The notes: generated by a model from the sequence alone, not told the origin. A stretch of 64,000 nucleotides of DNA from Gammaproteobacteria bacterium (GCA_965238175.1 CBDEGZ010000003.1:1984001-2048000), one strand, 5' to 3'. Counted from the first letter of the stretch, positions 19,145 through 27,542 are shown. A program made the numbers and translations.

Positions 19145-19465
19145 TTATCTAAACCACGCTGAATAATTATATATTCCCAAGATAACCACCAATTCCAATG
19201 CAAAAATAAGAAGTAGAAACTTAATATAATTATTTCTAATCTTAATATAACTTTCAAAGTATTGAATATCCTTTTTATCGATATCCTTCTTCCATGAACT
19301 ATTGAAAGGCATGATATATTTCAAATGAGAAGAGATAGAATATTTTTTAATTATTTCTTTAGGCAAAATATCTTTAAAAGAGATATAAAATAATAGTATT
19401 ACATACCCAACTATCTGAACAAAGATCAATAGAAAAAAAGTATAAACTAAAAAACGTAATGACAT
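19145..19465 (-). CDS. Putative Rhs immunity protein (two TM helices)
   Basis: Directly downstream of the toxin tip, very AT-rich, hydrophobic N- and C-terminal helices. Confidence 0.65.
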   Translation of the reverse strand: MSLRFLVYTFFLLIFVQIVGYVILLFYISFKDILPKEIIKKYSISSHLKYIMPFNSSWKKDIDKKDIQYFESYIKIRNNYIKFLLLIFALELVVILGIYNYSAWFR

Positions 19466-19487
19466 ATCGTTTACGCCTACATTAATC

Positions 19488-20216
19488 TTAAAGAGCTAAA
19501 AGATAAGGAGCAATTGTTGCACAGGTAGCACCGGCAACAGCGATTACTCCAGCCAGACCAAGAGACTCACCGCCAATGTTCAATTGTAATTTTGCAGTTT
19601 CAAGCGCTAATTCCTGGATTTTTGCATTAAATGGTAATTTTTCTGCTGCAGTCAGACATTTATCCTTCTCTGCTTCTAAGTCAGAAATTTTTGCTTGAAG
19701 TTCTTCATATCTTAATAAGGCACTAGATATTGTGGAAATTGATCCTGACTTGCTATAGGCAGCTAAGGCTCCGCAAGCAAGGCCTGCCGCTATTCCAACA
19801 GGAGTTATCAACCCACTTCTGTCCGTTCTAGTGATTGGATTTCCACTCACATACCCATAAGTATTAATCCCACCCCTCAACCCAATCGGGTCACTCGTAA
19901 CATACCGACCAATACTCGGATCATAAGTGCGAAAGTAATTATAGTGCAGCCCCGTCTCCGCATCAAAATACTGCCCAGGGAAGCGCACATTATTCGTCAC
20001 CGTCTCTGTCGTCACAGTTGCCTTCCCAAACGGATCATACCCCGCCTGCCAGACAATATTCTGGTTTGCATCCGTCAGCACCTGTGGGGTGCCCAGATGA
20101 TCGTTGTGGTAGTAACTGATCTCTGTCGCTGAAGCACTCGCCGTTAATCCCGCTATAAACAATAGTCTGAACATTTTACTGAGTGTTTTACCTACTTCCA
20201 TTATTAAACCTGTCAT
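19488..20216 (-). CDS. Signal peptide + Rhs-associated core + C-terminal toxin tip (alternative start 20300)
   Basis: AAGGA RBS before ATG 20216; MTGLIMEVGKTLSKMFRLLFIAGLTASASA/TEISYYHNDHLGTP...RFPGQYFDAETGLHYNYFRTYDP...DPIGL...NPITRTDRSGL, then a 106-aa tip. Confidence 0.88.
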   Translation of the reverse strand: MTGLIMEVGKTLSKMFRLLFIAGLTASASATEISYYHNDHLGTPQVLTDANQNIVWQAGYDPFGKATVTTETVTNNVRFPGQYFDAETGLHYNYFRTYDPSIGRYVTSDPIGLRGGINTYGYVSGNPITRTDRSGLITPVGIAAGLACGALAAYSKSGSISTISSALLRYEELQAKISDLEAEKDKCLTAAEKLPFNAKIQELALETAKLQLNIGGESLGLAGVIAVAGATCATIAPYLLAL

Positions 20217-20302
20217 GGGTTTTCTTCCTTTCATGGCGATTACTGCTGCCGCTTGTCTTTTTTGATCAATCATGTCGTTGTTTGTTTTCGTCTGTCTCAT
20301 GA

Positions 20303-23300: not shown

Positions 23301-26300
23301 CCGTATTGGCCGTCTGCATCAATGAGTCGGCTGAGTCCATCGTAGTCCAGCGTTTGGCTATTGTTGGCATTGAGGTTGTTGGTGAGGGTTTTGATGTTGT
23401 TGGCTTCATCATAACCATAACTCTGGTTGATAACGCTGCCTTGTGTGTTGTTGGTGAGGCGGTAGTCAAGGTCATATTGTTGGGCCTTGTTAATCCCATT
23501 GCCATAGTCCAGTGATATCATTGGACCAAAAGGTGCGTAACTAATGTTGCTGGCTAGCGTGCTGGTGACACCCTCTTCTGTCAGCGTGACAGCGCTTATC
23601 TGGTTGATGGTGTTGTAGGTGTATTCAATTTCACGACCACTTGGATAGATAATATTAGTCAGTTGATCGGCACCGTTGTAGTCAAATTCAAAGGTCGATG
23701 GAATATTGTCGATGGTGACGGTTTTGATCGTGAGGTTGCCACGTTTGTCGTAGGCGTAGTTGGTGCTGCCACTGGCGTCAGTCATGCGGGTTAGGCGGCC
23801 GATGCCATTTTGTTGGTTGTTGTTTTCGTCATAGGTGTAGATGACATTGAGGCTGCTATCACCAGGGGTAGATCACACTGGTGAGTCGGTTTAGTGCATC
23901 GTAATTGTAGTTTGTGGTGATGCTTCTGGCATCAGTTTGGCTTTTGCGGTTACCAGCACTGTCATAGGTGTAGGTGGTGGTGCCGGTGTCTGGACTGTCA
24001 AGTGTGAGCAAGTCACCCAGGGCGTTGTAGGTGTAGTGGGTCTCCAAGCTTTCGGGATCGGTAACTTTGATCAGTTGGTCTAGCGCGTTGTAGTCGTAGG
24101 TGGTGGTGATGTCATCGGTCCCGTTGCTGGCGATGCGGATCTGGGTGACTGCAACCAGTCGATTGAGCGAATCGTAAAGTGACTGGCTGGTATTATTAAG
24201 CGTCAGTGGATCGACGGTTTTAGCCGCAGCAATGTTGCTACCAGTGTTTCTTGGATCGGTCATGGCAGTCTGATTGCCATTTAGGTCGTAGGCATAGCGT
24301 GTCAGTTGACCTTGTCCGCCAATCAACAGCAGCAATTGACTCAGTTGATCGTATTCACGTTCTAATAATCGTGTGATGTTACCGGCATTATTTTTAGTTT
24401 CTTCTTTGGTGCGATTACCCATAAGATCCAATGTGTAATGGATCGTATTACCCAGGTTATCGGTGATATCAGTCAGTCGATGAGCTGCATCGTAGGTGTA
24501 ATCGATAAAGGCATTAGTTGGTAAGGTCAGTTTTGTTAATTGACCGACGTTGTCATAATCAAAATCGGTGGTATTGCCATCCACTGTTCGACTAGTTAAC
24601 CAACCTCTTGGGTGATAGGTCAGTGTTGTGACCAAGCCATTCGGATCGGTAATCGTTTGTGGTCGGCCATTAGCGTCATGATTGGAGAAAGTGGTCTCAT
24701 GACTTAAGGCGTTAGTGATCTTAGTCAGATTGCCCGTCGTTGCTTCGTAGTCCATCGTCGTCGTATCCGTCACATTGACGCGTGAACCATTGATGGTTTT
24801 TAACTGTTTTGTATTAGGATCATAGGTATACGTAGTTAGCTGAGATGCACCAGATGATGGATCTTCCACATTTTGGGTGTGCACCTGCCCGTTCTGGTAG
24901 TGATCATATACAGTGGATTTTATATGTATCCAGCTGCTTAAGGCCGTATCACAGCTACTTGGGCTTAGGTTGCTTTGATCGGCAGGTGGAGTATAAACAT
25001 CTGACTCAGTTGGTATGTGATAAGCCGTATCCCAAGACGTGTAAGTCATGCGTGACTCTATGGTACTGTAACCATCAATGCGGCAGGTTTGTTTACCTTG
25101 AGAATCATGCTCAAATCGTGTGATGTTGCCGTTATAGTCAATTTGGCTAGCAAGAAAACCATTTGCATCGTAGCTATAGTTTTGTATCTGACTATTTTTA
25201 CAACTCAGACACCGATCTCCGGTCAAAGATTTAACGCGAGGCGATCCATTAATAGACTCAAACGTGTAAGTATGAGTCCCTCCTAATGAGGCATCGGTGA
25301 CATCCGTAGTCCCATCATCGTTGTATACAAACTCTACCCTCTCCACACCATCAGCATGCTCCGATAATTTTGCACGACCTTCTGCATCATATTCCCAACG
25401 GGCAAAATCAGCACCGTTTTCGTCAACCATGCCTGTTAAAGCATGATGAAAAAGCCCACTGCCATAACTATAAACTTTACTGCTGTTATCTTGATAGGTC
25501 ACTTCTAAAAGTTGGCCACCGTTTGCCTTGTACTTGATTAGACCATCTGGTGTTAATACCGAAGCGAGAAATCCCTTTGAGCTATATCCGAAAATCAGTT
25601 CTCGACCAAACGGACCGATAACTTTATCAAGCGTTTCAGGGTTGCCATCTCCACCGTTTTGTTCAGATAGATTATAAGTTAACGTCTGGGTATAATCTTC
25701 GCGACTAACGATAGTAAGAAGTTTTCCCGTATTATCGTATGTTTCTTGAGTATCGTCGTTATCAATGAATAGCCAACCACCAACAAGCTGTTCAAGTGTA
25801 ACCCTTGGGTCAGAAACACTTATCCAGGAACCTCCACTTTTCTCGAAAAACAGCAAGCTGCCATTAGGACGACTGACTGTCATCACCCCGCCTTGTTCTA
25901 ATAATTCACTATATGTATTAACATTATTTACTGATTGGGATGGGTTATTGGAGCGAACAGTCAGAAAAGCCGGAGCCTGGCCATCACCAGAAATCTTACA
26001 CAACTCGCCTTGTAAGCTTGCTGTCGTATTTGAACGTAGCCCTTTTATTGTTTTACCTTTGATTTGATTCCAGCCAGCTTCACAGGCAGCTTGAGGAGTA
26101 GCAAACAGACCGGATCGTTGCCCCCCTTCGGTATAGTACCCTGTAGTTAACTGGGCTATGCTTAAATTCTGAGGTGTATCCCGTCGTTCTATAGGCGCCT
26201 CACCGACTCCACGTGAATATGTATGACGCCAACCAAAGGCGACATTCATACCGGTTTTATTAGCCCCCTGACTATTGTAGTAACGTCGAAATTCAATCCC

Positions 26301-26924
26301 ATGAGTAAGACTGCTTTTGTAGTCTGTTTCTACCTGGTACTTATTCCCTGATGAAGGAATACACGGGTTTCCTTCACCACATTTAGCTTCAGGACTCACA
26401 GGCTCTTCAGGTTCTATGTAATACCCATCCTCATAGGCTTTAACACAGGCATTTATTTCTCCTGGCGGAGTGGCGTTGGGGAAGTATTTAGCTACAGAAC
26501 CACTTGGACAATAGCGCCTCATATAAATTCGTCTCAATGGATTCTGTGTACAATACCCTCCTGCACAAACTACAGGGACATGATCAGTTTCATAAGGGGT
26601 ATCAACCATAAATGAACAGGTGATGTTAGGGATATTTGGATCTTCTAAAGCATCTATCATTGCCTGCTTGTCAAAGCATTCAGCGTGCGCTTCTGGGTTA
26701 GGGCGACCATTAAAATAATTTGAGTACCACGCAGCTGTTATCTGCGCAATACTGGCATATGACTCTGCAAACGAGATCTTATTTGGCCCTACGTTATGAT
26801 GTTCATAATAATATTCCATGGGGAATTCGATAGTCTCTGCGCTTACCTGCGTAGTATGAAAAAGTGATGTGAATAGTAGTAAGCCAACTAATAAACTATT
26901 TAATGTGTAAACAAACATAAGCAT
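20303..26924 (-). CDS. Large secreted Rhs/YD-repeat protein (about 2200 aa) with C-terminal golvesin-like/Ig-like repeats and no Rhs core; single +1 frameshift at 23865-23868
   Basis: ORFs 23859-27056 and 20303-23785 join (YPGDSSLNVIYTYD...GRLTRMTD) if one C is removed. Signal peptide ending QVSA (start 26924 or 27056); DUF6531-like GNP..SGNK..RYYNS..GWRH; many YD repeats. Confidence 0.85.
20312..22872 (-). repeat. 720-bp tandem repeat, about 3.5 near-identical copies
   Basis: RTATTCCAACTTAATCGCAT recurs at 20321, 21041, 21761 and 22481; the 240-aa unit is IIVDNSD...DAIKLEY plus PVVTISSP...ITITVT. Confidence 0.97.
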
Positions 26925-27542
26925 GTTATTCCTAAAGGAACAGGTATGAGGGGTTTTCAACGGAAGTCTCCTAGAATCAATCACAATTCGATTAGAACGC
27001 GAAGGTTTGAATATTAGAGTTGTTTTTTTTAGTGTTTCAAGATGGCAAAAAATCATCGAGGGACATCCTTGTTATTTATTATTAAACTTTAAATGCTGAT
27101 TAAAACAGCATCATGTTCAGGTGTTGGAGACATTCAACCACAGTTATGAATAATGTAGTTGTGAGTTTTCTCACAATCATTGAAAGAAAAATGTTAAAAA
27201 AAGTTAATTCGAGTGCAAGCAATATGTGTTCTGCTAATGAATCTATTTATAAAGCGATATTCATAATATTGTGTGGAGAAATGTCTCTGCTGATAGTTTC
27301 TGATTCTTGGTAAACCTCTAACGATTTCGTCAAAACTATCTTATTTAAAAATACTATCGTGGAAATCAAAGAAGGAAACTGATCTCTTTTATTTAGGTGA
27401 TACTAAATAGCCGTAGCATTATTGTTACGAGAATGAATATAAAAACTGCTACCCATGACATATGGAATAAAGCTTCCAAACAGTAGTTTTGTGAATGAAG
27501 AGGTTGGGGAAAACATTAGGCGTTTCTTAGATGATAGCTCGA

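Follow-up and report, generated by a model that had tools for sequence, protein, structure and literature searches.

Does an Rhs locus with its shell and its toxic tip in separate genes represent a single-chain toxin gene that has come apart, or a toxin assembled from chains that are exported one by one? The customary description of an Rhs toxin is of a single chain that folds round its own toxin and is carried by a type VI secretion system (T6SS). The locus that raises this question lies in a stretch of 64,000 nucleotides from a gammaproteobacterium (GCA_965238175.1, CBDEGZ010000003.1:1984001-2048000), the whole of which we call the window, and extends from position 27056 to 19145 on the minus strand, the strand of all locus features given below. 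An earlier reading of the window (the original prediction) held that gene A encodes an Rhs shell with adhesin-like repeats, that gene B encodes the missing Rhs-associated core and a toxin tip behind a signal peptide of its own, and that gene C is an immunity candidate. We consider it fairly probable that the product of the locus is an Rhs/YD polymorphic toxin, dependent on Sec and independent of the T6SS, with a cocoon built of separately translated and exported chains. The basis for this reading is the gene layout, its recurrence in other lineages, purifying selection on the shell and family assignments.

Gene A begins with a long, basic leader that contains a hydrophobic stretch and ends ..TTQVSA|ETIE. 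Past the leader come eight cysteines within roughly 160 residues (counted by eye in the translation), a DUF6531 domain at residues 229-283 (Pfam; 28.6 bits, cut-off 24.1) and a long run of YD repeats, which is recognized as a YD-repeat shell by RHS_repeat (PF05593; eight stretches, E 1.4e-49, Pfam) and TIGR01643 (110.7 bits, NCBIfam). The assembly presents the gene as two open reading frames (ORFs). The N part (27056..23859, 1065 aa) holds the leader, Cys-rich region, DUF6531 and YD repeats, and the second ORF (23785..20303) has 1160 aa. The final shell YD repeats occupy 22919..23863 and their last residues are EYIFLNGTLLAQ. Downstream of these residues, Pfam identifies four Golvesin_C stretches (E 1.2e-91) and three Big_7 stretches, with CBM_4_9 as a weaker match. 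Golvesin_C is a carbohydrate-binding-like domain and Big_7 an Ig-like one. Together they form 3.5 repeats of 720 nt (20306..22888), each composed of Golvesin_C and Big_7, which are inserted at the hairpin preceding the core position and finish with ..EYVGGGN. A repeat search returned four copies of this DNA at 720 nt spacing with 92-99% identity over 300 nt, and Tandem Repeats Finder, for which 500 is the longest period, reported no array in gene A. The order of leader, Cys-rich region, DUF6531, YD run, repeats and stop is thus as originally described, and the codons said to set the gene end apart are exact: three internal copies read GTT GGT GGC GGT AAC CCA and the last reads GTA GGT GGG GGT AAT TAA.

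This TAA (20303..20305) lies inside TAATTAA, which also places a stop in the frame of gene B, and is followed by the two bases TC and then the first ATG of gene B (20300..19488, 270 aa). Counted from that ATG, the leader of gene B comprises 58 codons (20127..20300) with six in-frame ATGs, all of which precede the hydrophobic stretch MFRLLFIAGLTASASA (20127-20174); gene callers choose Met10. After the end of the leader, ..KMFRLLFIAGLTASASA, come TEIS and YYHNDHLGTP, so that the sequence missing from gene A resumes four residues past the leader, just as had been claimed. The leader also qualifies as signal-peptide-like under a rule of our own, by which a leader must contain basic residues and a hydrophobic run whose mean over 8 residues reaches 2.0 or more, with small residues at positions -3 and -1; we use the term signal peptide in this sense throughout. 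The claim that gene B has its own ribosome-binding site stands in part: the Shine-Dalgarno-like AGGTGGGGG lies 9 nt 5' of the first ATG (20300) but not before the methionine from which the original prediction had read the protein. A promoter and terminator scan was uninformative, giving 24 and 12 sites against 16.1 and 8.1 expected.

The Rhs-associated core of gene B (19806..20126) runs from TEISYYHNDHLGTP through DPIGL, its first protease motif, to NPITRTDRSGL. TIGR03696 matches residues 88-164 with 97.5 bits against a cut-off of 32.5 (NCBIfam), which identifies the core. Mature gene B matches the final ~105 shell residues in solved Rhs, TcC and teneurin-like structures (7q97, 8cp6 Tse5, 8uy4 Tse15, 8h8b, TcdB2-TccC3, YenB-YenC2 and 9pt5). 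The tip that follows (19488..19805, 105 aa and the stop) has Gly/Ala-rich hydrophobic ends and a helical middle. Gene C (19465..19145, 106 aa), the immunity candidate, has hydrophobic segments and is encoded by DNA of 29% G+C. Neither the tip nor gene C has a family match in Pfam, and the Pfam search of tips, immunity candidates and the gene A Cys-rich region gave nothing above cut-off except Sel1 in a Hahella gene described below.

A paralogous locus in the same genome (L008) shares a 5-kb block with the window, from mid-shell to core end, at 94.6% identity. The A/B junction is the same in the two, letter for letter, over the 60 nt compared 5' of the first ATG and over nt 1-281 of gene B. Past nt 281 the gene B copies differ only at third positions up to codon 140; beyond ~residue 141 the tips differ, as do the downstream genes, which have no family match. 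In both loci the shell, core and tip are not one polypeptide, being interrupted by a TAA, two bases and new start codons. Programmed frameshifting from A to B was considered and rejected, because TAATTAA puts a stop in each of the two frames and a slippery heptamer is absent. L008 is intact and contains an additional split at a position that we call site 1 (~residue 741); gene A runs through it unbroken, whereas breaks lie there in the paralog, in Hahella and in a Pseudomonas. The N fragment of L008 is 687 aa long and finishes with ..TQTVETPNT, and its TGA overlaps the ATG (ATGA) of a 1565-aa gene that begins with another signal-peptide-like leader and then resumes ..STSYTYDATTKQIKTINGPRTDV.. 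The ratio of nonsynonymous to synonymous substitution (dN/dS) between the window and L008 shells is 0.10, 0.16 and 0.18 over 324, 315 and 871 codons, indicating that both shell copies were under constraint. Since their A/B junctions are identical, the window and L008 count as one event.

When read from the first ATG, five chains of this genome (window 27056.. and 20300..; L008 17528.., 15468.. and 10768..) have unusually long basic stretches of ~30-45 residues before the hydrophobic part. Such stretches are also present in the metagenome relatives P0080, P0090 and P0142 and in a gene of genome G190, and would reflect either internal true starts or an extended leader.

Comparable splits are found in other bacteria. 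A query composed of the shell end and the repeat start retrieved 22 proteins, four of which (P0006, P0007, P0008 and P0014) are single chains with Golvesin_C repeats at the same hairpin as in gene A, flanked by ..Y(I/V)(Y/W)L.G.P(I/L)A.. and ..Y(V/I)H.DHLG... Because these single-chain relatives share the insert site, the Golvesin_C insert is older and wider than the split. Another match, from Hahella aquimaris (P0009), has a signal-peptide start, resumes at site 1 and ends after two Golvesin_C domains. Hahella sp. NBU794 encodes three N fragments in tandem, of 507, 537 and 486 aa, all of which have a signal peptide and stop at site 1, and a middle fragment of 947 aa that ends in two Golvesin_C domains. 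A 276-aa gene, MKSLNQLTTIFFSALFSLATLLSAQAHA|EGDLYFIHSDHLGTPQ.., begins 12 nt further on and carries core and tip, and a Sel1-repeat gene follows. The Hahella breaks fall at the same two sites as those of L008, and the leaders are unrelated. The three Hahella N fragments (L022 5321-9957) differ over their first ~250 residues and are common over their last ~200; judged from sequence, this would make the N-terminal end of an Rhs system polymorphic.

Pseudomonas sp. MWU13-2100 is split at site 1 only, with leaders on both chains and no Golvesin insert. In genome G148, the shell gene ends in thrombospondin-type-3 and DNRLRE domains and is followed by five signal-peptide/core/tip genes that have one common leader, with a small gene 3' of each. 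The shell of the metagenome contig L084 (1511 aa) has a signal peptide at its N-terminus and ends in a CFI-box-CTERM sorting domain (88.2 bits against a cut-off of 40), which comes after a DUF11 repeat. Its gene overlaps the next one, of 286 aa, with signal peptide, core and tip, and beyond that lies a lipoprotein-like gene. Four large genes 3' of the L084 immunity candidate look Tn7-like by eye; these and the shell gene are at L084 3412-7947 and 9563-15743. The search that had been proposed, for signal-peptide/core minigenes beside core-less YD genes, thus succeeded in L008, Hahella, G148 and L084. The same junction in L008 and the analogous splits with unrelated leaders in the other three bear out the claim that the split evolved and is not a lesion. 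None of the outcomes that the original prediction had named as refuting it was observed. Its description of the system as bipartite holds for the two leader-bearing chains but not for L008 and Hahella, which have three or more.

A related arrangement is seen in genomes G097 (three loci) and G141, where both parts lie in a single frame and are joined via a hydrophobic helix, a basic loop and a signal-peptide-like stretch (L069 1765-6621 in G097; L038 and L063; L044/L065 in G141). The stretch ends ..SQA|EQIYYVH.., directly before the core, and many of the 16 core matches in G097 align from residue 3 of the Hahella leader. If this stretch is cleaved, there would be two chains here too, and the joint looks like a post-translational version of the split.

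We assessed how common the layout is by comparing the first 140 residues of the Hahella gene with short proteins (151-483 aa), which gave 4006 matches at E<=1e-5 among 4209 candidates. Among the best 120 short cores, 75 start with a leader of the signal-peptide type, in 30 the core is fused to a Golvesin-type tail, and 15 are of another type. The 75 leaders comprise 72 distinct strings, and the core motif lies 24-58 residues from the start. On a quick core tree (125 rows, 105 columns, many forks not resolved), the signal-peptide and Golvesin-fused labels require 5 changes, compared with 22-29 in 200 shuffles; as kin share labels and the sample was picked by likeness to one gene, this measures clustering and is not a count of origins. 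The five tree rows nearest to gene B of the window are all of the signal-peptide type (best identity 71%). Division into several chains that bear leaders is real and recurrent, and on the core tree it is clustered.

Gene B has matches in 16 of 61 genomes of the genus and class (G000 included), and no match outside G000 begins before residue 42. A word-indexed search for relatives of the gene B leader gave two matches among 20 candidates, both in its own genome. When the relatives' orphan loci were inspected, the motif was found in five of 11 and ordinary YD sequence lay upstream in all five, the other six being without a pattern match. The N part of gene A has 149 matches among the representatives besides the query itself, nearly all of them long, fused and spanning site 1.

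A structural model addresses whether the two chains fit together. Chain 1 consisted of the intact paralog shell, residues 52-700 (17-row alignment), and chain 2 of mature B from the window (42-row alignment); gene A itself was not repaired for the model, and the N fragment was left out for size. The complex score is 0.92 (median of three runs), and the best of three controls scored 0.00. Of solved complexes, 58 of 80 attain the 0.92 mark, as do 2 of 110 mismatched pairs; these rates hold only roughly here because the alignments were made by us. Between runs, at least 62% of the contacts are shared, and the partner has a predicted local distance difference test score (pLDDT) of at least 61. The pairs with the least error join shell residues 641-644 (LAQL, our numbering) to residues 3-6 of B (ISYY), and this predicted pairing is the hairpin that is continuous in single-chain Rhs proteins. 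The proposed check of the A-B complex came out as expected for the first strand of B on the last strand of A, with the paralog shell in the place of A, and bears on this contact, not on enclosure of the tip.

Several points weigh against the reading of separately exported chains. The two modelled halves belong to a fold that has been solved as one chain, so that the score demonstrates likeness and not assembly after export. The last protease motif of the window gene B is DRSGL, not DPxGL, and that of the paralog is DPTGE. With leader DNA of gene B that is identical in the paralogs and has no relative elsewhere, selection on the leader is not measurable. Split forms are also a minority, single-chain genes being the commoner kind among close cores: 80 metagenome loci include 1 signal-peptide minigene, 52 fused genes and 5 short genes without a signal peptide (19 others are cut by contig ends and 3 are unclassified), and stand-alone N fragments ending at site 1 are 2 of the 149 matches to the gene A N part (P0156 and P0244, both with a signal-peptide start). 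There are signal-peptide core genes with no shell gene nearby, namely two at a second locus of G148 and one in G190, and neither G190 nor G089 has a shell match at E<=1e-20, which keeps a stand-alone role for such genes open. Finally, gene A is broken in the assembly, and the window copy may make no full shell.

This last point invites the explanation that the window copy is a decaying remnant in which gene A has been inactivated and only B and C, or nothing at all, are functional. The original prediction needs correcting on this point: at 23862..23866 (..SVIYP / GDSS..) the assembly has one base more than the intact paralog, a difference near 23864 that puts the gene in two frames. The first frame ends ..SVIYPW before its stop and the second resumes GDSSLNVIYTYDE.., where the paralog reads ..SVTYPGDSSLNVIYTYDE.. 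in a single frame, one base shorter. Either a recent inactivation or a fault of the assembly may account for the break. Three public sequencing runs were used, with all contigs coming from one sample. Contigs over 23864 lack the extra base, yet carry the paralog's four substitutions and so represent the paralog copy or a merged path; with these paralog-type letters, they neither confirm nor refute the break and are not decisive against a remnant. One of the runs, X3, covers only 23410-23886 of the window (depth ~34) and nothing more in the 8-kb region, and this stretch may come from another organism or library in the same sample with a related rhs segment. The island-like DNA, beside a resolvase, an insertion sequence (IS) integrase gene and hipA, would suit a remnant as well. 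On the other hand, the dN/dS values of 0.10-0.18 against the paralog point to constraint until recently, and there is one break only in 6.7 kb. We consider decay of the window copy unlikely.

The shell-less core genes bear on another explanation, in which gene B is a self-sufficient secreted toxin precursor whose core serves as a self-cleaving pro-domain, gene A acts on its own as a YD/Golvesin adhesin and the two lie side by side through descent from one Rhs gene, not because they now cooperate. Modelled alone, gene B has a mean pLDDT of 60.5 and a predicted template modelling score of 0.36, with strands at residues 1-60 (pLDDT 72-93) and a tip mostly below 50, so that its first part folds into strands in the absence of a shell, as a stand-alone protein would. 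However, the shell ends exactly one strand before the start of B in five loci (window, L008, Hahella, G148 and L084), the core matches only the closing part of solved shells, and it is placed on the last strand of A with a score that the controls do not approach. Likewise, core/tip genes do lie without a shell in the stretches read from G148 and G190, but the tip of the G190 gene is ~20 residues long and may be a remnant. A role for gene B independent of gene A therefore seems improbable to us.

That the A/B junction arose through misassembly, or through a recent lesion of a single-chain Rhs gene, as the near-identical 720-nt repeats beside it (hard to assemble) and the single-chain relatives with the same insert might suggest, is largely refuted and highly improbable, given the identical junction and 60 nt upstream in L008, public contigs (probably from the same sample as the assembly) that bridge 19987-20348 and 20319-20656, ~170 nt of extra coding sequence with a signal-peptide-like stretch in place of a mere stop codon, and equivalent junctions in other genera.

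Returning to the reading of separately exported chains, the following sequence of events is envisaged. Chain A would consist of a signal peptide, a Cys-rich N domain, DUF6531, the YD shell and then a display module of 3.5 Golvesin_C/Big_7 repeats. Chain B would bring its own signal peptide, the core (last strands and plug, with autoprotease motifs) and the ~105-residue tip, and chain C is the candidate membrane immunity protein. Chains A and B would cross the inner membrane via Sec and lose their leaders, after which the first strand of B (..ISYY..) would pair with the last strand of A (..LLAQ..) and close the shell round the tip. The particle would exit through a type II system, the Golvesin_C modules could bind surface glycans and the tip might act on membranes. 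We infer closure in trans after export, type II secretion and the exchange of cartridges, that is, of core/tip genes such as gene B.

An extension of this reading, which we put forward tentatively and as a possibility only, is that these loci constitute a combinatorial Rhs system. Interchangeable N fragments, such as the three in tandem in Hahella, would combine with one shell body and with interchangeable cartridges, such as the five in tandem in G148, each exported alone and assembled in the periplasm. The break would at the same time leave the C-terminus of the shell chain free to carry modules for display or anchoring, which are Golvesin_C at this locus and CFI-box-CTERM or a membrane helix at others. 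Given that other bacteria have the same layout, toxin cartridges may be usable with no rearrangement of DNA. If the combinatorial reading is true, one cell could field several targeting and toxin combinations at once, without classical orphan recombination. Cocoons divided at constant positions, with every piece bearing a Sec leader, would raise the questions of how a YD cocoon assembles outside the cytoplasm, how it leaves a Gram-negative cell without a T6SS and whether leader-bearing, orphan-like cassettes are expressed directly. In practical terms, the junction would offer a natural split point for loading YD shells in trans.

With regard to the secretion route, the genome (97.7% complete) yielded neither TssC (PF05943) nor Hcp (PF05638), and the Pfam and NCBIfam scans of the locus genes contained no PAAR or VgrG family, in agreement with the original prediction. 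The genome does encode two GspD secretins (501 and 486 bits against a cut-off of 351), which establish that a type II route exists and nothing beyond that. A precedent for this route is provided by Bcn-A of Xanthomonas perforans, a 1398-aa Rhs bacteriocin that is active in the supernatant and loses its activity in a type II secretin mutant (PMC7259588). Bcn-A requires ORF2 and ORF4, and the membrane protein ORF5 is its immunity protein (PMC7259588). ORF4 has 290 aa, a signal peptide and two membrane helices at residues 148-198; its authors regard it as an accessory factor, and the part of the paper available to us reports no core domain in it (PMC7259588). By size and layout, ORF4 might correspond to a signal-peptide/core/tip gene, a resemblance that we offer as a lead only. 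Large Rhs families of Xanthomonas and Ralstonia have also been linked to gspG, with type II secretion described as not yet functionally confirmed (bioRxiv 10.1101/2025.05.08.652813), and RHS repeats have been counted among polymorphic toxins exported by Sec and the type II secretion system (Zhang et al., 2012).

The neighbourhood of the locus resembles a genomic island, to judge by its composition and gene content. G+C dips to 29-35% at both ends of the locus, and the neighbours scanned with Pfam, none of them a secretion gene, are a photolyase, hipA (window 15763-17043), a 63-aa PEP-CTERM protein (17357-17548), a resolvase (29079-29636), prfC and an IS integrase-core gene (31540-32574). Downstream of the paralogous locus (L008 3774-8295) lie a 1049-aa FG-GAP/YD fragment nearly identical to part of a giant gene at a third locus (L009), a core fragment of 115 aa that lacks a leader, and a transposase-like gene of the IS200/REP type, which is present beside L009 too. 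The giant gene (L009 4424-14419; G000:C3, ~620.4-630.4 kb) is a single frame of 3331 aa with two complete Rhs units in tandem. Unit 1 has a signal-peptide-like start, FG-GAP/VCBS-like repeats, a YD shell, a core and a Gly-rich hydrophobic tip, and unit 2 has a DUF6531-like start, a YD shell, a second core and a second tip. The gene upstream of it (>1420 aa) contains Golvesin-like and Ig-like modules that resemble those of gene A.

A comparison with known systems places the locus between several of them. Tc toxins provide the example of a cocoon, formed by TcB and TcC, that assembles in trans. Like TcB-TcC, the locus encodes a YD cocoon from two polypeptides, with the core and the toxic tip on the second. 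TcB-TcC, however, assembles in the cytoplasm without signal peptides and is broken mid-shell, whereas both chains here have leaders and the break lies one strand before the core; in addition, the Pfam scan of gene A finds no SpvB or TcB families (TcA was never searched for). Common to the locus and to T6SS Rhs effectors are a YD shell, a DUF6531 region, DPxGL-type motifs in the core, a tip that varies and a small gene downstream. Those effectors are single chains linked to PAAR or VgrG and a T6SS; scans of the locus genes gave no PAAR or VgrG and the genome gave no TssC or Hcp, and the locus encodes separate chains, each with a signal-peptide-like leader, and a repeat module at the last hairpin.

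WapA and teneurin-like toxins have an N-terminal Sec signal, a YD shell, a polymorphic C-terminal toxin and no T6SS, all of which recur here, the Sec signal in the form of a signal-peptide-like leader, and the bacterial teneurin-like proteins are described as Sec-dependent (PMC13018210). These are single chains, in contrast to the two to five genes, each with its own leader, of the present systems. The Bcn-A locus has in common with ours a multi-gene layout, a short ORF with a signal peptide (290 aa in Bcn-A) and a membrane immunity gene that follows (here a candidate), and separately exported chains would give a reading of that multi-gene locus. Among the titles and abstracts that the literature searches listed, none describes a layout with separate leaders on shell and core, a statement that does not cover supplementary tables (e.g. 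that of the Xanthomonas/Ralstonia survey). The closest likeness to gene B is offered by orphan Rhs-CT modules, which also consist of a short ORF with the core end, a tip and an immunity gene 3' of the main rhs gene and also occur in arrays. The ordinary orphans of the relatives nevertheless lack a leader, and YD sequence continues directly into their core (in 5 of 5 loci with the motif, 11 read), whereas gene B has six in-frame ATGs, AGGTGGGGG and a signal-peptide-like stretch four residues before its core.

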